A stretch of DNA of 60,028 nucleotides, filler included, from Dirinaria sp. TL-2023a (lineage: Eukaryota), in the NCBI GenBank assembly GCA_051941275.1. It is 9 parts of 9 records of this genome, joined end to end, with 100 filler letters (N's around TTAATTAATTAA, not from the genome) between each part and the next. Parts side by side here need not be neighbours in the genome. Positions count along the whole stretch, not along the records: positions 1 to 6,610 come from JAVEBF010001453.1; 8 more parts are not named here. One strand, written 5' to 3'. A model generated the notes under the pieces. It saw nothing but the letters and a program-made list of their open reading frames with translations, was not told where the DNA came from and searched no databases. Made by a program: the position numbers and the translations under genes. Positions 1-53,464 of the stretch are shown here, piece after piece. The stretch's first letter is position 1; every line of letters begins with the position of its first letter.

Positions 1-2279
1 AGTGACCGGTAGCACGCACCTTGTAGGGGGCTTTTTGGAGGTTTTAGAGACAGGCAAAGTATGAACGAGGATCGCGGCGTCAGTGCCTCAACGCACGAAA
101 GTATCATTATTTGAGTTTGTACACCTTCGTACAATCTACAATAAATCAAAGCAGAAATCCACTGTGAACGGATATCTGCTACGATATGTCTAGCATCATC
201 AGATAGGACAGAAGGTATATTACGGAAGGCCTCGCTGATTTTGGGGTTCATCCTAGATACTTCTCTGTGCGTGAGCAACCCCTACCACGTACCATCGTCT
301 TCTTGACTCTTGATCGCAACTGCTGTAGGTAGGTGAGTAGGGATTGATCCTTTCCTGCCTCCCACAAACGGTCTAAATAATAATACTGTAATGATCTGTG
401 TCAGGGGCTCTGGACCAGTTTTTCTTGGCTAGAAAAAATGAAATGAAACTTTTCGGTCACTACGTAGATACTAACCCAAACAGTACCTCCTCCTCCTGAC
501 CTACCATACTTGACCTTACCGAGAACAGCTCTGGGTTGAGACAGGGCCAGGCAATCATTATTATTGTGACATTTTTCACTCCTTTTCCGAGGCATACTAC
601 GTACATGAGCTATTCAAACTGAGGTCATTATTCCCTCGTCTTGCATTCAGTGGCTGAAGTTGAGCATCTGATCTTTTGGAAAAGATCGTCATGCCATGGG
701 AGGCATCGCAGCTTGCATACAGATGTAGAGATTTGCGAGCGTTCAAAGCGCTGACTAAGAGATGTACGAGTACTTTTTTTTTTGCCTTAATGTAAGATTT
801 GACCTGGGGAAGGTTTAGGGCCACGAAGCAGCTGCACGTCAGCCAAAGCTTAAAAGGTTTCTGCTTTTTTCCCCCTCACAGAATTCACCTATTACCTTCT
901 ACCTTACTGTACCTTATTACTCCTCTTCAACCTCCACCCTGAATCCCTACCTTGCCAACCCCAATCATGTGTCCGACCACCGACCAATGCAATGCCAGAT
1001 ACACTTTGTACCAAAGATCGAAATCGCCAAGCAAAGCACAGGGAGATGGTGATCGGATTCGCTACCAAATTACTCCTACACTTGGACCCCAAAAAGCAGC
1101 TACAAAGCCACAAGATTCCTGACATCCATGGTTCGCGATGCTTGATGATGTGCATAGCGCAGACTTGGTATTGACACCCACGGACGTCTTAGGCTGGAAA
1201 TAGCGTCGTCTCTCAGCTACCTCACAGTACAAGTAAGGTACATTACTTACCATCAGAAAGCGCGGCTACCCCGCCTCTCGGCGTTACCAATCAGAGATTT
1301 CCATCTCAAATTCAGCCTGCAATTTTCCCGGGAAAAGTCCCTCTGACGGTAAGCAGCTTGCGCATTCGTATTCTTAACCGGTCCTCTCACCTTTTGTGGG
1401 CCTCACCGATGGGGTACGCAACCGAGATCTCAATTTGAAAGGGCTGTAAAATTTCCGGTCAGAACCTCTGCGCGTCAGAACTGCATCAGCACGCCAACAC
1501 GATAACCGTTGCAGCAATCGCCCCTTACATTGCTAGCGGCGCAGAAACGTACCAAGGATGGCGCGCATATCCAGATTTCCGAGATATGGGGCCCTAGTTT
1601 GGATCTGAATTTTACACGATTCGGTCGCTTGAAGCGACCGGTGCAACGGTTTTCCCCAATTACCGCGCCGTTTGAGGCACGGACCTACCAGATCCGACAT
1701 CGCATTGGATCGATGGGGACAGAAATGCCCATTTCAGGACCGATGCTAGTCCTTAGCGCCAGACATGGTCGAGCTGCTAGCAAGGTGTGCAAAATCCGCA
1801 GGAGGTGGGTTAGCTCTGCTCTACTAGATTAGCTCTCTGTGATATTGCCGTCGGTCTGGACCTCGCAAAGGTGGACCGCTCTCTTACCGCTTCTCATGTT
1901 CAATCCTCGTGGATTATGCACCGAGCAAGGCTATCTTGGATCTCCCGAGACGGAGCTTTACGACATGAGGTAATAGCTTTCGACTGTTTGGTGGTTCGAC
2001 CTGATGTTTCATTTGGCTTTTCCCCATTTATACCCAGGCCTGCCTGCTTTTTGATGTAATGTCCTCGCGTAGAAATTATTATCTAGATCGTGGATTAGAA
2101 GATTAACATTGTATCATTTGCCTCACAATCCCATTTTTAGACTGTATTCACCTTCATAAAACTAGGGCACAATCCATTTGTTATTTCACTTTGGTACAAG
2201 GCACCCTAGGTGCGTTCTCCTTCTAGATCAGACGAGTCCTTGTACGCCTGTTAGCGACGGGCTTAAGGCGGAGGAAATC

Positions 2280-5200
2280 ATGGGTGACCATGCGCCGTGG
2301 ACACACTGGAATAAAGCCCCACTCGTCACAGTGGAGGAATTCTCACCCTCCAATGCAGCGTTGCGTAAATGGCAGAAGAAGATCTCCAAAGCTCGTCGCT
2401 TATCTCGATATTCATCCACCGCGTGTCGGATGCTGCCTCCATTATGGACTCCTGGTATCCGCGAAGAAAGTCTAGAGCTCGCTGTGAAGTCCCCGATGAA
2501 TCCATCACCAGGTGAATTGGCCCTTGCTATCAGCGACGAAATTCTGGAGCCTACTAAGGAGACTCCAATGAATGCGGAACACGAAAAGTTGGCCCCTCTT
2601 GTTCTTGAAGAAAGCTCAAAGCCAGTCCCAAAAGCTTCAATGACTGCAGACCCTTATGTAATGGCCTCTGTTGCTCCTGAAGAGGGCCCCAAACCGGACC
2701 AGAAGCCTTCAATGGATTTAGAGACCAAAGGATTGGGCCGGTGTCCAGTAGCTAAAGAGTTCCAGAAAGTGCAAGATCACCACAGCATTCTAGCATCGAC
2801 AGGCTGCACCCGGCAATTCTGTCAAGCCGGCAGAGCTGTCCACACTGATGAACCTCGAATTGGTGAGAATCGTGCCGTCAACGTGGTGAAACAGGAAGCA
2901 GAAGCCTTCCTTCGAGATTATTATCGAGAAAATCACTTCGATGATGAGAAAGAGCTTCTTTGTCGGCTTCAGCAAGTCCTTGAGGAGATCGAAGGTGGCG
3001 CTTGCGATGGCGTTGTAAGGGAAACCAAGAAACCTGGGAAAATCGGTGGCAACTGGGACCAGACTTCGGCAGAGTTGGAATTTGGCATTCGCCGCGCATG
3101 GAGAAACTCGCGGAAATGTATCATGAGATCACATTGTGAGGAATTGAGGTGAGCTCTATAGCAATGAGACTAGTGATCAATAGACTGACACAGAAACGGC
3201 GCAGGCTGTGTGATCTTCGAAGCACAACTTCTAGCGCTGCGATGGCTAGCGCACTCATAGAGAATGCTTTCGAGGCTTTCAACGCTGGCAACATCAATCC
3301 TACAGGTAGGCCTGCATCTTGAAGTCTAATTGGCAGTCGCTAATCTAATTCACAGTCTTTGTCTTCCCGCCACGCAAGATAAACAGCAGAGGGCCTCTTA
3401 TCTGGAATCATCAGCTGCTCGAATTTGCAGGCTACGAACAAGAAGACGGCTCGATTCTTGGCGATCCAGCAAGTGTAACGCTTACTAAAGCCATAATGGA
3501 GCTGGGGTGGAAGCCTCCGAATCCACGAAGCCGGTGGGATCTTTTGCCGCTCGTGGTTATGGCTGACGGCGACGTTCCGGTCATTGCAGAACTCCCGACA
3601 AGCCTTTCGAAATTAGTTAGTATCCGCCATCCGCGGTATGAACGAGAGTTCGAGAAGCTGGACCTAAAATGGGTGGCTTTTCCCGCATTAGCCAGGTTAG
3701 GGTTCGACATCGGTGGCGTACAATACACAGCTGCACCATTCATCGGTTGGTTCATGGACGCCGAGATAGGTGTCCGAGACCTTGCAGATTCTTTCCGCTA
3801 CGACGCCTTGCCAGACGTAGTGAAGGCTTTAGGCCTCCTTGCGGATAAGGCCGAGGAAGGTATTGATGATCTGGATGATCTAGCCGAGTTTGAACAACAA
3901 TCAATGTTGGCGCGAGCTCAGACAGAGCTTACTTACGCTGTGTGCTGGTCCTTCCTCCAAGCAAAAGTCAGCATGACAGATACACTGACCGCTTCGATGA
4001 AGTGGTGTCGTTACGATGATGAATTCAAGGCGAAGACTGGTTTCAGACTGCCTGCGGACCCCTACTGGCTGGCACCTCCCCAAGGTTCCATTATTCCCTT
4101 ATGGCACCGCGGCGGTGCCCCGAATTACCAGCCAAAGCCGATGATAAGTAAGCATGTTCAGGACCCTCTCAAAGCTTGGGAAAGAGAAAAGCAAGATTGG
4201 TTTGTAGCGGCAAAGCCCATGCCTGTTATCGCCAATCTGAGCCCAAACCGATCACATTTGGGCTCGAGAAGTAAGAGTTACAGTAAGCCTATCCCAGCTT
4301 GGGACACAGCAGGCACGCAGAAAGCCGCTCCGAGACACATCCAGGAACTTCTTCAAGGTGAGATCCCAGCGAGTCCAAAGCAACTCGAGAGCGCTCAAAT
4401 ATCCGTATCGATATATTTTTGTAGCGCGGGAACACTGGCGGAAAAGATCGCGAAGAAATTGCATGACCGGCTCAAAGACTTTAGGGATTCTCTGGAGATA
4501 AGTCTGTGCTTGACCACTCAACCAGTGGACGCTCTCGAGATGTCAGATCTTAGCGCTGGGAGGATCCTGCTCTTTGTAGTCAGCTCTACTGGCAACGGTG
4601 AAGTCCCAGCAAATGGACGCAAATTCATCCAGATGTGCGATAGTGGGGTCTTGAGTAGCGATACGGTGAAAAAGACAGGCTTCAATTACGCTATTTACGG
4701 TAACGGAGATAGTCGGTATGCAGCCACATACAATGGCGCTGCGCTGAAGGTTGAAGAAACCCTCAAAAAGGCTGGGGGCCTGCCAATAGCATGTGGACTC
4801 TTCCAGGGAGACACGGCTATCTCAGCAAATGCTCTCAAAGCATTAAATCCCTGGTGGCAAATATTGCAACCGAGCATCCGCGATCTCAAAGGAGCTTCCC
4901 CAAAGCTGAGACGAGCGAACAGCGAAGTTGGCGCGGGCCAGATATCCGTCAACGAAGCTATTCATCTTGCAACCGAATCCAAGAAGAGGTTCCAGACATG
5001 CGCAAGCCTGCTCGACAAACAATTCCGGGAATCGAAAGTATTGATCACTAATCCTCCAGTGCAGCAAGGCCATAAAGGCTCGTATCTCATTGCTTTGGAT
5101 GTCGATGAGCATACTTACGAAGATATGGGTTGTGTTCAAATCCTTCCGCTTAACGCACCGTCAATGGTACGAGAGGCACTTCGGATATTGGGCGTCAATG

Positions 5201-6102
5201 GCTCTGCATCTTTGCCGCTAGATCTGCCAGGCGTTGTAAATCCGACCTATTCCAAATTTCTCAGGGAACTGGTTGATCTCGAAGCTCCATTCCCGAATTC
5301 GGATAACCTCAAACGTATCATGTCTGTTTCCGGTACGACAAGCTACGACAAAAAAATAGGCCAGATTTCATCTCTGGAGTTGCTCCGACGTCTTCACGCC
5401 GATGGGGTACTTCCAACCAAGAGCGCTATTAGCAACTCCATTTGCTTTGCGCTCCCACTCCTCCACCCTCGCACCTACTCCACCGCCTCCTCGCTAGCTT
5501 ATGCCCGTCGATGCGCGAAATTGAACGAAAAGTCCTCCAAAAACCAGCTCGACCTCCTAGTGAAACCCTTACCTAAGGGCCGCTTTAGCGAGACCTTCCT
5601 TTCATCGGCGTCGTCCGCTCTCCGCTACCGCATGCTCCCCTCATCAGGCGCCTCACTGCTTGATATGGCGCCCAGCACACCCCTGATCATGATCGCTACC
5701 GGTGCTGGCTTTGCACCTGTTCGCTGCCTGCTCCAGCGTCGCATCGCTGCCTCTCGGAACGCATCTGCAGATACGGAACGCAGCATCTCACTCTTTCTGG
5801 GTTTCAAACCTGCAGACATACCGCTGCATTCGGCGATCCTGAACGAAGCGGCCGCGGCAGGGATATTGGAGAGCTTGGCGATCGTGGGCAGTAATGAGGG
5901 GAAAGTCAGGATCTATGACAGATTGCTGGAGGATAGTACGCGGGAACGCGTGAGAGAAACCTTGATGGTGAAGAAAGGGTGGATGTTTATGTGCACTAAT
6001 CCGGAAGCTGCAAAAGCGATTAGAAAGGTCTTTGATGAAGATATCCTTGGCCAAGGCGGTATCGACGGCTTGGGGACGAGGTGGGTTGAGGATGTTTTTT
6101 GA
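2280..6102 (+). CDS. NOS: Full-length nitric oxide synthase-like protein (oxygenase + flavodoxin/FMN + FAD/NADPH reductase), ~1238 aa; exons 2280-3148, 3205-3305, 3356-6102
   Basis: Two GT-AG introns (3149-3204, 3306-3355) with branch sites join the ORFs into one frame. Oxygenase motifs: GCTRQFC (CX4C), EAEAFLRDYY, AWRNSRKC (heme Cys), IWNHQLLEFAGYEQEDGSILGDPAS, ELGWKPP..RWDLLPLVV, PFIGWFMDAEIGVRDL, PADPYWLAPP. Reductase motifs: VVSSTGNGEVPANG, YAIYGNGDSRY, LHPRTYSTASS, MIATGAGFAPVR, terminal RWVEDVF. The start ATG is inferred, and an upstream exon is possible. Confidence 0.93.
2463..2717 (+). repeat. Degenerate 72-bp (24-aa) tandem repeat, ~3.5 copies, inside the NOS N-terminal extension
   Basis: Units start at 2463, 2535, 2607 and 2679: EESLELAVKSPMNPSPGELALAIS / DEILEPTKETPMNAEHEKLAPLVL / EESSKPVPKASMTADPYVMASVAP / EEGPKPDQKPSMD. 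Confidence 0.75.
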
Positions 6103-6610
6103 TGGGATTGAAGTGAGGAGTAGCTTCACCGGGCGAAACAGGTGAACTTTCTAAGAACAGCACAGGTTCAAGTACCTTGCATTTGTGCGAACATAAGACG
6201 ACCATGCTCAGGCAACCCTGGAAAGGTTGATCATATGGGTCAACCCCTCAACTGGATTCCTCCTGGGAATGTCTTGCACACTGTGCTTTATCTCATACAT
6301 GAGTAGTTCTAGATTCTAGCGGCCTGACTGCTGCATTCTGAGCCTGTAAGGTCACTTATACAGAATCACCAATTTTTTTGATCGAGATTCGAGGAGTCCA
6401 AACTTCTTGTCCAAGATATCACTCGAAGATTCTTATACTACGTTGTCTTTACGTCTCACATATACTTTATAAATCCATTATCTCAGTGATTACAAGCAAA
6501 GTCGAGACTTTAGTGCTAATTGAAATCACGATGATTACTTCATGAGGTCTCATGTTATTTGGCCGCCGGCAAGCAGCTCTCAACTTTACACAGCTCAGGC
6601 ACACTATTCC

Positions 6611-6710
6611 NNNNNNNNNNNNNNNNNNNNNNNNNNNNNNNNNNNNNNNNNNNNTTAATTAATTAANNNNNNNNNNNNNNNNNNNNNNNNNNNNNNNNNN
6701 NNNNNNNNNN
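6611..6710. other. Artificial contig spacer
   Basis: N44-TTAATTAATTAA-N44; the core has stops in all six frames. Confidence 0.99.
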
Positions 6711-8518
6711 CCTACATTTGAAAAACTATTGAGAATGAATTGGATGTTCCTAGATTGCTCTACATCACGATGTATCATCCTTAGAGCTGTGAGGTCAGAA
6801 TTGAACGCTCTAATCAAATAGTTGGAAATTGCTCTGCGATTCCACTATACAGGCCTCTCTGACTCTCCTCAGTGATCAATCGGTTTACCGCATGTCCAAC
6901 GCGATATTAAATAACGATGGTCGGCCCGCAAATACTGAGCTCATGTCTAACGAGGTGCTACCTACGGGCTTTACATCTCTGCAAGAAAGAACAAAGGGCT
7001 ACGATCTCCGTATTGATTGCGGGCTCGTTGAAACGCGATATAACGTACAATAAAATAGTTCAAGGTCTTCGGAAGCACACGCTCCGACGAAAAGATCTTT
7101 ATGATAGAGCATGGATTTAAATTCTAGGACGGTTTGAGTGACAACGTCCTAGTAAAGTGCTTCTTCTCGAACTAGCACGCGCTCGGACTCATGAATGGCG
7201 GTACCCCAAAAAGGGGGGAGGAAGGGGGGGAGAAAAATGTAATAACTAAGGCTCATTGAACTATTCCTCATACCCAGATCCAACCAACGAGCGCTAGCTC
7301 CTACTAAGACCCAGAACATCCCCCCATCCAACTCTACAATCCCAACTAAATTAAAACCGTGAACCAAAAGGTATACCTCGCATATTCAACCCCCCACATT
7401 CAATCCCCATCGAAAATTGAAGACAACAGAGTTGTGAATGAGTATATCTATCCAGTTCTCTACGAAAACCATATATTTTATTTGATATCCGGGAAGAAAA
7501 GACGAGTCAGGAAGATCTCCACACACGCAAGAGGAGTCGAAATTATTTCTACCTCAGCTTAAAGGTATAGCGACATGACTTTCCGAGAATCAGGGCCCCA
7601 ATCATCGGACAAGCGACGAATGGATTTTTCGTCCATAGGGTTTCGATCTGCATTCCCTCCTTTCACGCCGAAAAAAATAAAAAACAAAATTTGAAGTTCA
7701 CGCACAAGATATAACCGACTTTCGGATCCAGTTCGTCGGTTAAAGTCATATGTCTGACCACGGAATTCTCTGTGATCTTTCAAAAGAGAGAAATCCGTGA
7801 AACTGCACCGATATCATGATTAATGCCGGGACTACTCAAAAACTTACTTCGCCATTCCCCGTATAAAAGTCCGCGCGGTATAGAGATATAATTCGCAAAA
7901 CATAATTTCAAAGATGGATCAAGGGATAAAGAATCTGTGAAAGGAAGACATACACGCCAAACTCAATGGAATTTTCTTGAACGATCGAGACATTTTTTTG
8001 ATTTCGATGGATGGTGTTGTTTCATGAGGGGCATTAATGAATATCCACAAACGATGTTTTATGTTCAAGAACTAGCTAACAATGTTCTCCATAATTAGGG
8101 AAATATTGAGCCATTTACTATGAAGTAATTTGACCGATAGAAGCGAAAAGTTGGATAGGACCATAAAACTCCAATGCTGAACCTTACCTACATGGTTAAG
8201 TTTCAGGTTTTGTCTAATGATCAAGAACATGTCAGTGTTTTGAATTCATTAATGGTATAGTGAGTTGCTCTGCACTCGTACGTAAAGAATCTCTGTTGTC
8301 CTGCGTTTTCTTGTGCCTTGCATGTCGCGAGTGGCTCTGCTCGTTCTGCGCTAAAGCCTTGTGTTCGAGTACATTGGTACTGTCTATAGTCACCATAGCA
8401 TGGATACCATAGTGGCCTCGAATCGCGGGAAAGGTGCGTAGTATAGGCTAGGAACTCCGTGTCATTGGCGGATCAAACCCAGTCTTCACAGTTTGCTCAG
8501 TCAGAGCCAGCTCTACTT

Positions 8519-10802
8519 CTAATTAGTTATGTATTTAATCGCGAACGCCTTGACTATCCGGACTCGGTCGATGTAGAGTGTAATATAGCAACAGCCAAAT
8601 CTGTTTTTAAAGTCGAGAAGGTCATTGATAGATAGGAGACAGCGCGCCGTTGCAGCGGGTATACCTAAAACGATGGAAAGGTTACGGCGCAGAGCATGAT
8701 GGATGGAGAAATAAGGCGGAAACGGGTAACACCGTTGGAATTGGTGCATGATTGTGAGAATGCTATGAAGGACTCGACCTTCATCCAAGGACTGTTATAG
8801 CAGATTGAGGTCATCGTTACATAACTTCATCGTTCAATTGATTGTCCATCTCCATCTCTTCGAGCCAAGGATTTCCTCTGCAAATGCCGTACATGTCTTG
8901 TAATAATCGAATTTCAAATAAATAAACGCATGATTTTCAGTAGTAACGATTCGCAAAGTCAAAGGCCCCTAGAACATGAAAAGCGAATGTTTTCGCGAAA
9001 TTGATATTTGTTTTTGAAAGGAGGTGGTGAGAGCAGATATCATGTGTCGAGATTCAACTTTTCTTTTCCGCTCTTTATTATGATTTGGAAGGGACTTCTT
9101 AATTGTAGCTGGGATTGTTTCTGTTCCTTTTTCCCCCTTCTTTAATTCCATGTATCTAGTAACAGAGGTACTGTTTCTTTGAGCGTTCTCCAAGCATAAT
9201 ATTGCTCTTAATTCCTAGGAGGACCATAGACTCGCTTTCCCAAGGCTGCAGGAACTGGGATGGGCCGTTACTGTCCTGAAAGAAGTACGCGTTTCTTATA
9301 CTTAATTCAAATCCTTCTCTGTAGGAATTCTTATCTCGACCGAACTTGAGTACTGTCCACCTCCGTTGGCTAAGTTTGAGGGATTGCACCTTAAGCGATA
9401 GCCGCTTAGCCGTTCCTCCGTTTTCACGCAATGAAGAGCCAGTACCACCCAGATCGTCTTAATCGTCTGAGCTTTTTCATCGATTTTGGCTTCGAATCTG
9501 CGACTGAGTGTAGAAATTGAAATGATGACTAGATATAGAATGGAAGTGAAAGGTAGCTATTCTTCGCATAAATCTGCAAGACCAATATTGATGACGCTGT
9601 TTGTTCGCAAATTACTTCGATGGACCACGGTTTCTCCATCGAAATTCAGTCACATTCATTACCGTTCGTAATCCAAAACACAAGAACCCGTGCACGATGG
9701 TCCAAAATGTTCTGTTCCCGAGACTTTTTATGGCTGTGCTCGTCAGGCGCAAAATATTGACAAAGCGCCCGCCTCTGAAAATAGTCGTGTTTCGCGCAAC
9801 TAACCGCAGGCCGCGTTCCGCTTTTGGCGGAAATAATAACTGAGTATATCTTTGCAGGGTGTACTTGGCCCTTTTGCAGTTGGTTTCTGTTGACCTGGTG
9901 TTTTTAAGATGAAGTCATTCATTGAACTGTTCCTCACTCTTCTTGCCATTACCCGATTCTGTGCCTTGGTCTGGGCAGAGACGCTGATCGCCAATTCTTC
10001 GTAGGCTTCAGTCCAGTACCTAGTCCTCGCGATCGAACGCACTAATACAGGCTATGCAGTTTTGCCAATGATCTCCACGATCCTTTTCAAATGCGAGTCT
10101 ATCAAACATCGACCAGCCTAGTGTTCTCAGGCTTCAGCAGACCGTATGTCCATTTCGAAGCTAATAAGTTGTTGGCGATCGGCCACAGAGCGCAGTACGA
10201 GATTGTGAAAGCCGTCGTACAAAACCATGGGGACGGACCCATTGCACAGCCCAATTTCGAATGGTGTTTTGCACTTGTGTGTCTCCGGATCAATCATCAA
10301 ATCGATGATAAAATGACGTGAGTAATGCTTTTCAAACTGCCCACTTCCACCTGAGACCCATTGCATAAGCTTGGCTTCCTCGATACTGCTCCTCAGGTCT
10401 GATCCCTACGCTTCAAAAATAGTTCTGACCATCATGATGATGAATAGGTGGCTGATGCTGTCGGCCGCGATCAATGGCATCATGCAGTTCGGGTGGGAGT
10501 CCAATTTTAGTACTTGCCAGAGAATCTCAATTCTGGACGATGAAGCAGGCGTAGTAGGGAATGGAGAATTGATATTGAGAAGGGGAGATAGTTCAACGAA
10601 TGGGGGAACATCGACATCGTAAGGAATTCGATTCCTCTGAAGTAGATGTACTTGTACCTGAGAAGATTTGCCAATGGAAAAAAATTAAAATGGCCAAGGC
10701 CGGGAATTCAGATGCATTTAGCAGCGCTATCAGCTTCTCCAAAGCGTACACTTCATCGAAACCCAACCATAGATATGAAAGTGACTCGGAAGCCGAACCC
10801 AC
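8519..10802 (-). pseudogene. Possible degenerate coding relic of unknown family
   Basis: ORF fragments 10127-10366, 9800-10042, 8969-9193 and 8519-8788 share one minus-strand frame. From about 10618 to 9800 this frame reads through isolated TAG/TGA stops as protein-like sequence. Confidence 0.35.
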
Positions 10803-13307: not shown

Positions 13308-13407
13308 NNNNNNNNNNNNNNNNNNNNNNNNNNNNNNNNNNNNNNNNNNNNTTAATTAATTAANNNNNNNNNNNNNNNNNNNNNNNNNNNNNNNNNNNNN
13401 NNNNNNN
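13308..13407. other. Artificial contig spacer
   Basis: N44-TTAATTAATTAA-N44. Confidence 0.99.
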
Positions 13408-19991: not shown

Positions 19992-20091
19992 NNNNNNNNN
20001 NNNNNNNNNNNNNNNNNNNNNNNNNNNNNNNNNNNTTAATTAATTAANNNNNNNNNNNNNNNNNNNNNNNNNNNNNNNNNNNNNNNNNNNN
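19992..20091. other. Artificial contig spacer
   Basis: N44-TTAATTAATTAA-N44. Confidence 0.99.
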
Positions 20092-26671: not shown

Positions 26672-26771
26672 NNNNNNNNNNNNNNNNNNNNNNNNNNNNN
26701 NNNNNNNNNNNNNNNTTAATTAATTAANNNNNNNNNNNNNNNNNNNNNNNNNNNNNNNNNNNNNNNNNNNN
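26672..26771. other. Artificial contig spacer
   Basis: N44-TTAATTAATTAA-N44. Confidence 0.99.
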
Positions 26772-33351: not shown

Positions 33352-33451
33352 NNNNNNNNNNNNNNNNNNNNNNNNNNNNNNNNNNNNNNNNNNNNTTAAT
33401 TAATTAANNNNNNNNNNNNNNNNNNNNNNNNNNNNNNNNNNNNNNNNNNNN
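33352..33451. other. Artificial contig spacer
   Basis: N44-TTAATTAATTAA-N44. Confidence 0.99.
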
Positions 33452-40028: not shown

Positions 40029-40128
40029 NNNNNNNNNNNNNNNNNNNNNNNNNNNNNNNNNNNNNNNNNNNNTTAATTAATTAANNNNNNNNNNNNNNNN
40101 NNNNNNNNNNNNNNNNNNNNNNNNNNNN
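40029..40128. other. Artificial contig spacer
   Basis: N44-TTAATTAATTAA-N44. Confidence 0.99.
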
Positions 40129-46700: not shown

Positions 46701-46800
46701 NNNNNNNNNNNNNNNNNNNNNNNNNNNNNNNNNNNNNNNNNNNNTTAATTAATTAANNNNNNNNNNNNNNNNNNNNNNNNNNNNNNNNNNNNNNNNNNNN
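46701..46800. other. Artificial contig spacer
   Basis: N44-TTAATTAATTAA-N44. Confidence 0.99.
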
Positions 46801-53364: not shown

Positions 53365-53464
53365 NNNNNNNNNNNNNNNNNNNNNNNNNNNNNNNNNNNN
53401 NNNNNNNNTTAATTAATTAANNNNNNNNNNNNNNNNNNNNNNNNNNNNNNNNNNNNNNNNNNNN
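53365..53464. other. Artificial contig spacer
   Basis: N44-TTAATTAATTAA-N44. Confidence 0.99.

Follow-up and report, generated by a model that had tools for sequence, protein, structure and literature searches.

We describe here a nitric oxide synthase (NOS) gene of a lichen-forming ascomycete, located in a window (the whole stretch of DNA analyzed) of 60,028 nucleotides from Dirinaria sp. TL-2023a, assembly GCA_051941275.1. The gene occupies positions 2280-6102 on the plus strand, as do all its features given below, within the first contig of the window (1-6610; positions past 6610 belong to other contigs). It is intact, and the deposited record names Dirinaria sp. as its source. Three exons join into one chain in which a NOS oxygenase domain is followed by a flavin mononucleotide (FMN) domain and by a flavin adenine dinucleotide (FAD)/NADPH module. 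We report the structure of the gene, the order of its domains, the fold of its reductase, and the conservation of its catalytic and cofactor motifs across the family.

Results

A three-exon gene behind a truncated public model

The exons were read from the DNA and joined by script. Three open stretches on the plus strand (2166-3152, 3140-3322, and 3349-6102) lie in three different frames, and the joining of exons 2280-3148, 3205-3305, and 3356-6102, stop codon included, yields an uninterrupted frame of 3717 nt, made up of 1238 codons and the terminal stop, exactly the length that a first-pass annotation of this DNA had read after removing two introns. Exon 1 (2280-3148) starts at the first in-frame ATG, at 2280, and encodes residues 1-289 plus two bases of codon 290, comprising a weakly conserved N-terminal extension of ~150 residues and then the beginning of the oxygenase domain. 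Residues 1-167 match no Pfam family; the start codon is backed in the alignment by the N-terminal motif PW..K..L..EEF, common to Teloschistales homologs, and the open reading frame (ORF) of a relative at locus L001 has a similarly long and weakly conserved N-terminus.

Intron 1 (3149-3204; 56 nt, GTGAGC...CAG) carries a branch-like GACTGAC 15 nt before the acceptor, and its removal restores the frame and creates the joint CEELR/LCDLRS (the slash marking the junction) as in homologs. An earlier CAG, ending at 3193, was considered as the acceptor of this intron and dismissed, since its use would run the frame into a stop; with the CAG ending at 3204, the frame stays open and the joint agrees with the homologs. 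Exon 2 (3205-3305) is 101 nt long and contains M303. Intron 2 (3306-3355; 50 nt, GTAGGC...CAG), with a branch-like GCTAATC before its acceptor, leaves upon removal the joint NINPT/VFVFPP, again as in homologs. Exon 3 (3356-6102), an open frame of 917 residues, encodes the remainder of the oxygenase domain and, after the linker, the FMN domain and the FAD/NADPH module, up to and including the stop codon.

Both joints were examined in an alignment of the joined protein with 26 homologs, picked from the best 120 of the 359 database proteins that match at E<=1e-5, and each is ungapped in 23 of the 26 rows. The exceptions are P0001 and P0002, which start downstream, P0002 and P0015, public models that retain intron 2 as a 17-residue insert, and P0060 and P0071, which have local deletions. 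Among sequencing runs, no RNA run was found to contain this stretch, and the two DNA runs that came up each contain 0.06 of the sampled words. P0001 is the deposited 936-residue "hypothetical protein" of a Dirinaria sp. metagenome-assembled genome, to which the exon-3 translation (917 residues) is 100% identical. It begins at M303 (3211, in exon 2), so that residues 1-302 are missing from it, and with them the zinc motif and the heme cysteine. As read here, the three-exon model improves on this truncated version, which, being without the heme ligand, would lead automated surveys to misjudge the gene.

An oxygenase domain with conserved catalytic residues

The oxygenase domain (2883-4146; Pfam PF02898) spans both introns. 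The NO_synthase profile, with a cut-off of 22.7 bits, is matched in exon 1 at E 1.4e-8 (34.5 bits, profile positions 4-74) and in exon 3 at E 4.9e-64 (217 bits, profile positions 108-354), which bears out the domain assignment of the first-pass annotation. The motifs quoted there are also all present in the spliced protein: AWRNSRKC, IWNHQLLEFAGYEQEDGSILGDPA, GWKPPNPRSRWDLLPL, GWFMDAEIGVRD, PADPYWLAPP, and the C-terminal RWVEDVF. When the oxygenase core is compared with the chains of solved NOS structures, the scores are ~175 bits for the brain enzyme, 173 for the inducible, 160 for the endothelial, and 160 for the bacterial oxygenase-only form.

The alignment with brain NOS places the main functional residues, whose roles (zinc, heme, substrate, and pterin) we take over from the NOS literature. 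The motif GCTRQFC (2802-2822), a CxxxxC with C176 and C181, aligns with GCTEHIC of brain NOS and is presumably the zinc-tetrathiolate motif. AWRNSRKC (3096-3119), containing the proximal tryptophan W274 and the heme-thiolate cysteine C280, aligns with AWRNASRC, and E460 (3763-3765), within GWFMDAEIGVRD, aligns with GWYMGTEIGVRD and is taken to be the glutamate that binds the guanidinium group of arginine. At the pterin site, the segment PADPYWLAPP...PLWH is aligned to PADWVWIVPP...PVFH of brain NOS.

Conservation was assessed in 55 full-length sequences, namely the window protein and all 54 homologs of at least 1000 residues among the best 120 of the 359 matches. C280, W274, W561, and W573 are kept in 55 of 55 and E460 in 54 of 55, and the two zinc cysteines in all 52 sequences aligned there, the other 3 of the 55 having a gap at the motif. 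To judge from this alignment, the catalytic residues are under purifying selection across the full-length members of the family.

A diflavin reductase complete in its predicted fold and partly below the Pfam cut-offs

The FMN (flavodoxin-like) domain (4414-4797) is recognized by the Pfam profile Flavodoxin_1 with E 1.2e-12 and 49.5 bits, 128 residues being aligned on 124 profile positions; among its positions that are invariant in the 55 sequences are C679, G682, S733, G736, G738, N773, G774, and Y778. The FAD/NADPH (ferredoxin-NADP-reductase-like) module (5026-6099), with RTYS at 5470-5481 and TGAGFAP at 5698-5718, ends at the C-terminal F1238. Its two profiles appear in the right order and below the Pfam cut-offs, NAD_binding_1 reaching 17.6 bits (cut-off 22) and FAD_binding_1 12.3 bits (cut-off 32.3). 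The fused reductase of the first-pass annotation is therefore recovered by Pfam in its FMN part, whereas the FAD/NADPH part misses the cut-offs and is recovered by its fold.

An AlphaFold model of residues 655-1238 (584 residues), built with a 64-sequence alignment, has a mean predicted local distance difference test score of 85.4 and a predicted template-modeling score of 0.75, and is of low confidence only in its opening 13 residues and in a loop at 186-202. In a Foldseek search of the PDB, the model matches plant and rat cytochrome P450 reductase (CPR) with E about 1e-25 and a template-modeling score of about 0.5 over 640-690 alignment columns, followed by cyanobacterial syNOS, the sulfite reductase flavoprotein, and the reductase module of rat nNOS (E 1.7e-22). 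The matches extend over all the sub-domains, at a sequence identity of only 15-19%.

The cofactor motifs are likewise retained in the family: R1029 in 54 and S1032 in all 55 sequences (R-x-Y-S), G1106 and G1108 in 55 and P1111 in 52 (G-x-G-x-x-P), the cysteine C1203 in 53 of 53, and a terminal phenylalanine or tyrosine in 53 of 55. By analogy with CPR, we assume that R-x-Y-S serves FAD and G-x-G-x-x-P serves NADPH, that the cysteine is catalytic, and that the C-terminal aromatic has its CPR-type role. On the predicted model, the FAD/NADPH module is very divergent and yet folds as a complete CPR-like diflavin reductase. As the fold is complete and the cofactor motifs are present, the loss of FAD and NAD domains that a published survey (PMC7400543) scored for fungal NOS reflects the sensitivity of the profiles rather than true absence.

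Absence of recognizable animal control elements

The linker between the oxygenase and FMN domains (residues about 587-677, 91 residues; 4141-4413) is weakly conserved, with 15 of 90 occupied columns at 60% or more. The window linker contains no proline-free calmodulin-type motif of the 1-5-8-14, 1-8-14, 1-14, or 1-5-10 class with a net charge of +3 to +6, and the same scan, a heuristic with general motif definitions, finds none in 45 of the 55 family sequences. No autoinhibitory insert is seen in the FMN domain by the flavodoxin profile, a regulatory insert or tail is recognized in none of the 55 sequences, and the chain ends exactly at the terminal aromatic in 45 of them. From the lack of motif, insert, and tail, we infer an enzyme that is independent of calmodulin and devoid of the animal control elements; its control would probably be exerted mainly through expression or the supply of substrate.

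A discrete and long-branched clade of fungal NOS

The best 120 of the 359 matches include proteins of lichen-fungus metagenome-assembled genomes (Teloschistales, Caliciales, Candelariales, Lecanora, Cladonia, Icmadophila, and Thelocarpon), together with Dothideomycetes, Neofusicoccum, Colletotrichum (many of them named nitric oxide synthase), and Collybia (Lepista) nuda and sordida, whose entries are annotated in the same way. The nearest relatives are all Lecanoromycetes (Teloschistales and others), as expected for a fungus of the Caliciales. Identity to the window protein is 53-81% for relatives from Caliciales and Teloschistales and 39-46% over 917 residues for the group of Colletotrichum, Collybia/Lepista, and Neofusicoccum, with 46% for P0066 of Collybia sordida. 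The view of the first-pass annotation that recognizable NOS genes are rare in fungi does not hold, given these matches, which include dozens of lichen fungi, and given the genes already tabulated in print in 2014 (in the NOS table of PMC4160249) and scored in 2020 (in the survey part of PMC7400543).

A search of a representative library of 1.84 billion proteins with the oxygenase core retrieved 1205 proteins at E<=1e-3. The family is set apart by its scores, at least 317 bits against at most 181 bits for all other full-length NOS, and the interval between contains only partial, family-like sequences that are 55-77% identical. A FastTree phylogeny was built from 128 oxygenase cores, that is, the window protein, 21 family members that had been named or selected, and every representative whose match spanned query positions 15-243, after exclusion of 62 of 257 proteins for coverage and of the remaining listed family members. 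In this tree, read without a fixed root, all 34 fungal rows form one clade with a support of 100 and a stem of 0.57. The non-fungal sequences fall, by Pfam architecture, into a globin-bearing group resembling syNOS, a group of reversed-order and short bacterial proteins, and a group with PDZ-bearing NOS. In a tree of full-length proteins, the family again forms a single, fully supported clade. In both trees it stands outside the clade that contains the PDZ-bearing NOS, a placement that, without a fixed root, does not indicate a sister group. The window protein is nested in the fungal clade and shares its motifs ADPYW, PxWHRGG, and FCSAGT and its end at the terminal aromatic.

The sequences thus assign the gene, with more confidence than we attach to any statement on its chemistry, to a discrete, long-branched clade of fungal NOS that is already annotated and partly studied. 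The designation as "animal-type" made by the first-pass annotation applies to the order of the domains only: the clade is separate and long-stemmed and has about half the Pfam NOS score, and the window protein shows no calmodulin-type motif, insert, or tail that we could recognize.

Within this clade, Collybia nuda P0060 and C. sordida P0066 are nested in the lecanoromycete part, in a group of 14 rows with a Shimodaira-Hasegawa-like approximate likelihood ratio of 98. Forcing all the ascomycete rows together costs 21 log-likelihood units (approximately unbiased test, p 0.006), a value to be read with the facts that the group was chosen post hoc and that there are two basidiomycete rows only. 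The topology suggests a transfer of NOS from an ascomycete into Collybia. A more tentative reading is that the donor was lecanoromycete-like and that, in Collybia/Lepista, a fairy-ring basidiomycete, the acquired enzyme would feed NO into the synthesis of 2-azahypoxanthine.

Other observations concern the architecture of NOS proteins. Some family models consist of one half only, either the reductase (P0092-P0099 and P0109; 718-745 residues, Flavodoxin_1 only) or the oxygenase (P0091; 961 residues, NO_synthase only), and would represent either split genes, as PMC4160249 reports for Macrophomina, or truncated gene calls. Among the non-fungal representatives, P0170, P0238, P0174, P0186, P0193, and P0156 show unusual fusions: a GGDEF diguanylate cyclase joined to NOS, a Ras/Roc GTPase domain placed after NOS, and a cyclic-nucleotide-binding domain with a BFD [2Fe-2S] domain, an FNR-like domain, and a C-terminal NOS, or the same arrangement plus EF-hands.

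Genomic surroundings

The NOS contig has no other recognizable gene, and its flanks share no ORF of at least 40 residues with the loci of relatives. For these, 21 metagenome loci were fetched and six were scanned, within up to 10 kb of the gene. In loci L015, L016, and L020, the NOS gene is preceded by a glutathione S-transferase and DNA polymerase eta; the genes after it in L016 encode a family-2 glycosyltransferase, a tyrosine phosphatase, and an ACT protein. An amino-acid permease, a fungal rhodopsin-domain protein, a methyltransferase, and ankyrin proteins are the neighbors in L006 and L007. The order of neighbors thus differs between lineages in the six loci. No polyketide synthase (PKS), non-ribosomal peptide synthetase (NRPS), or cytochrome P450 was found near NOS in the six scanned loci, within the short reach of up to 10 kb. 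Of the metagenome relatives with a long flank, the closest is L001, in which neither strand of the 8.7 kb before NOS (1-8775) contains an open frame of at least 130 residues.

The window is made of about nine contigs of ~6.6 kb joined by spacers of the form N44-TTAATTAATTAA-N44 (6611-6710, 13308-13407, 19992-20091, 26672-26771, 33352-33451, 40029-40128, 46701-46800, and 53365-53464; spacing ~6.67 kb), and genes on the two sides of a spacer are therefore not neighbors in the genome. The GC content of the NOS contig is 0.44-0.56 over positions 1-6500 and 0.35 in the last 110 bases, compared with 0.41-0.57 on the other contigs. The other contigs, unlinked to NOS, encode Arb1, an inositol polyphosphate kinase, Isy1, a CAP59-type mannosyltransferase, SAGA-Tad1, a cytochrome P450, and a cysteinyl-tRNA synthetase. 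The P450 ORF (37070-38764, minus strand; 565 residues, E 3.3e-45) lies on a different contig from NOS and so provides no evidence for a NOS/P450 pair.

Discussion

From its sequence, we consider it probable (roughly 0.7) that the gene encodes a self-sufficient, arginine-dependent NO synthase. The heme-thiolate oxygenase domain would act as a zinc-bridged dimer and would oxidize L-arginine to citrulline and NO, with the likely use of a pterin, while the electrons would run from NAD(P)H through FAD and FMN to the heme by way of the diflavin reductase fused to the same chain. The first-pass annotation had already proposed a candidate NO source of this type, and the proposal is strengthened by what we find at the locus, an intact, intron-bearing fungal NOS gene fused to FMN and FAD/NADPH domains.

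A number of observations weigh against this assignment. By the sequences compared, the fungal clade is the most divergent NOS group tested: besides the long stem in the domain tree, the two branches at the root split of the full-length tree, fungal and outgroup, measure 1.79 each, and the PF02898 scores of eight fungal family members (266-308 bits) fall below those of 37 non-fungal NOS (388-604 bits). A long stem and low profile scores make an altered chemistry possible. In addition, three substitutions relative to known animal-NOS and CPR motifs are found throughout the family: P559 in place of the first tryptophan of the animal-NOS motif ADWxW, T735 in place of the aromatic residue that shields FMN, and N1170 in place of the CPR arginine that binds the 2'-phosphate of NADPH. 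The pterin, the environment of FMN, and the preference for NADPH or NADH may differ as a consequence. There is also a pharmacological result: PMC6681199 reports that treatment of the lichen Ramalina farinacea with NG-nitro-L-arginine methyl ester (L-NAME) failed to reduce NO.

The explanation that competes best, although we regard it as unlikely, keeps the same chemistry and changes its purpose, the NO or reactive nitrogen being by analogy a building block of a specialized metabolite rather than a means of signaling or stress protection. Lichen fungi are rich in secondary metabolism, and parallels exist in the formation of triazines by Lepista sordida and in the nitration steps of bacterial thaxtomin-type pathways. 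The Collybia NOS belongs to the same clade as the window protein, nested among sequences of lichen fungi. A 2024 paper (PMC10831120) lists NOS among the nitrogen donors of natural-product pathways and states, citing Ito et al. 2022, that fungal NOS contributes to triazine/2-azahypoxanthine formation in L. sordida. The genomic surroundings speak against such a role, as neither PKS, NRPS, nor P450 accompanies NOS within up to 10 kb in the six scanned loci of relatives, the neighbors vary with the lineage, and the NOS contig itself carries no other recognizable gene, the P450 of the window lying elsewhere.

A slightly less likely alternative takes up the divergence described above. The protein could be a NOS-derived enzyme with an altered output or substrate, stopping at N-hydroxy-arginine, acting on another guanidine, or working in a largely uncoupled manner, or its reductase could be unable to bind FAD and NADPH, so that an outside donor would be required. 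The long branch, the low profile scores, and the substitutions that the whole family carries at the pterin, FMN, and 2'-phosphate sites are what would be expected in this case, and so are the sub-threshold FAD_binding_1 and NAD_binding_1 matches, together with the domain losses scored in the survey mentioned above. Such an alteration is, however, difficult to reconcile with the near-complete retention of the substrate glutamate, the heme cysteine, and the proximal tryptophan (54-55 of 55), or with that of the R-x-Y-S and G-x-G-x-x-P motifs, the cysteine, and the terminal aromatic in a reductase that folds confidently as a complete diflavin reductase, since a dead module would not be expected to stay conserved.

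It is very improbable that the sequence is a bacterial or other contaminant of the metagenome bin or a decaying pseudogene: although the contig has only 6610 bases, belongs to a metagenome-assembled genome, and offers no anchoring gene, the two spliceosomal introns bear fungal signals, the 1238 codons are free of stops, the closest sequences come from Teloschistales and elsewhere in the Lecanoromycetes with the bacterial multi-domain NOS in other clades, and the GC content resembles that of the other contigs of the window; the introns and the exclusively lecanoromycete nearest relatives also uphold the earlier argument against bacterial contamination.

Taken as an arginine-dependent NO synthase, the gene bears on a question of lichen physiology. 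According to PMC8073698 and PMC6681199, lichen NO is mostly made by the mycobiont upon rehydration, and the NOS-like activity discussed there is indirect, with no gene named. Fungal NOS genes have been tabulated for Aspergillus oryzae, Glomerella, Colletotrichum, Neofusicoccum, and Macrophomina in the 2014 table cited above (PMC4160249), and the L. sordida genome paper (PMC6458111) describes genes annotated as NO synthase, with additional copies in fairy-ring fungi, whereas a 2024 review (PMC10889981) still regards NOS-like genes as a rarity among fungi. In the open-access literature searched we found physiological and pharmacological papers only, and none describing a NOS gene in lichen-forming fungi. 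We put forward tentatively, at odds well short of even, that the clade, which spans many lichen-forming orders of the Lecanoromycetes, is the source of the NO burst at rehydration, in the form of a calmodulin-independent, self-sufficient NOS whose reductase escapes the standard profiles. The gene and its dozens of orthologs in lichen fungi provide in any case a concrete and testable candidate for NO production in lichens, and the value of this work lies in the corrected gene model, the demonstration of a complete reductase, and the candidate for NO synthesis in lichen fungi that they offer.

Comparison with known systems

The enzyme is not rare, is not an oddity derived from animals, and does not constitute a new kind of system. 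With the metazoan enzymes (nNOS, iNOS, and eNOS) it shares the oxygenase-FMN-FAD-NADPH order, the zinc CxxxxC motif, the heme cysteine, the substrate glutamate, and part of the pterin site, and a PDZ-bearing NOS of 1426 residues is 42% identical to it over the oxygenase core. It differs from them in belonging to a separate clade, in having no PDZ domain, calmodulin-type linker motif, FMN-domain insert, or C-terminal tail, and in a reductase that is only 15-19% identical to solved diflavin reductases, with FAD/NADPH matches below the Pfam cut-offs.

The bacterial multi-domain NOS of the syNOS type (PDB 9q05/9q0y) resembles the window protein in the fusion of the oxygenase to a diflavin reductase and in the fold of that reductase, and is its top whole-chain sequence match in the PDB (183.5 bits, in three stretches that include the NADPH domain). 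The globin domain of syNOS is absent from the window protein, however, the two proteins fall into separate clades, and the oxygenase core alone scores 143.7 bits against syNOS and about 172-175 bits against brain NOS.

In the case of the CPR family, the likeness resides in residues 655-1238, which show the full FMN/connecting/FAD/NADPH fold with R-x-Y-S, G-x-G-x-x-P, the cysteine, and the terminal aromatic, whereas the window reductase is fused behind a NOS oxygenase, is 15-19% identical, and, by comparison with known CPR motifs, has an asparagine for the 2'-phosphate arginine and a threonine for the aromatic residue that stacks on FMN. The closest correspondence is with the fungal NOS clade itself, in the order of the domains and in the motifs KCIMRS (the region of the heme cysteine), ADPYW, PxWHRGG, FCSAGT, and the C-terminal (V/I)(E/D)(V/I)(F/Y), and the window protein is distinguished there by a longer, weakly conserved N-terminal extension, which brings it to 1238 residues compared with about 1050-1200 in the clade.

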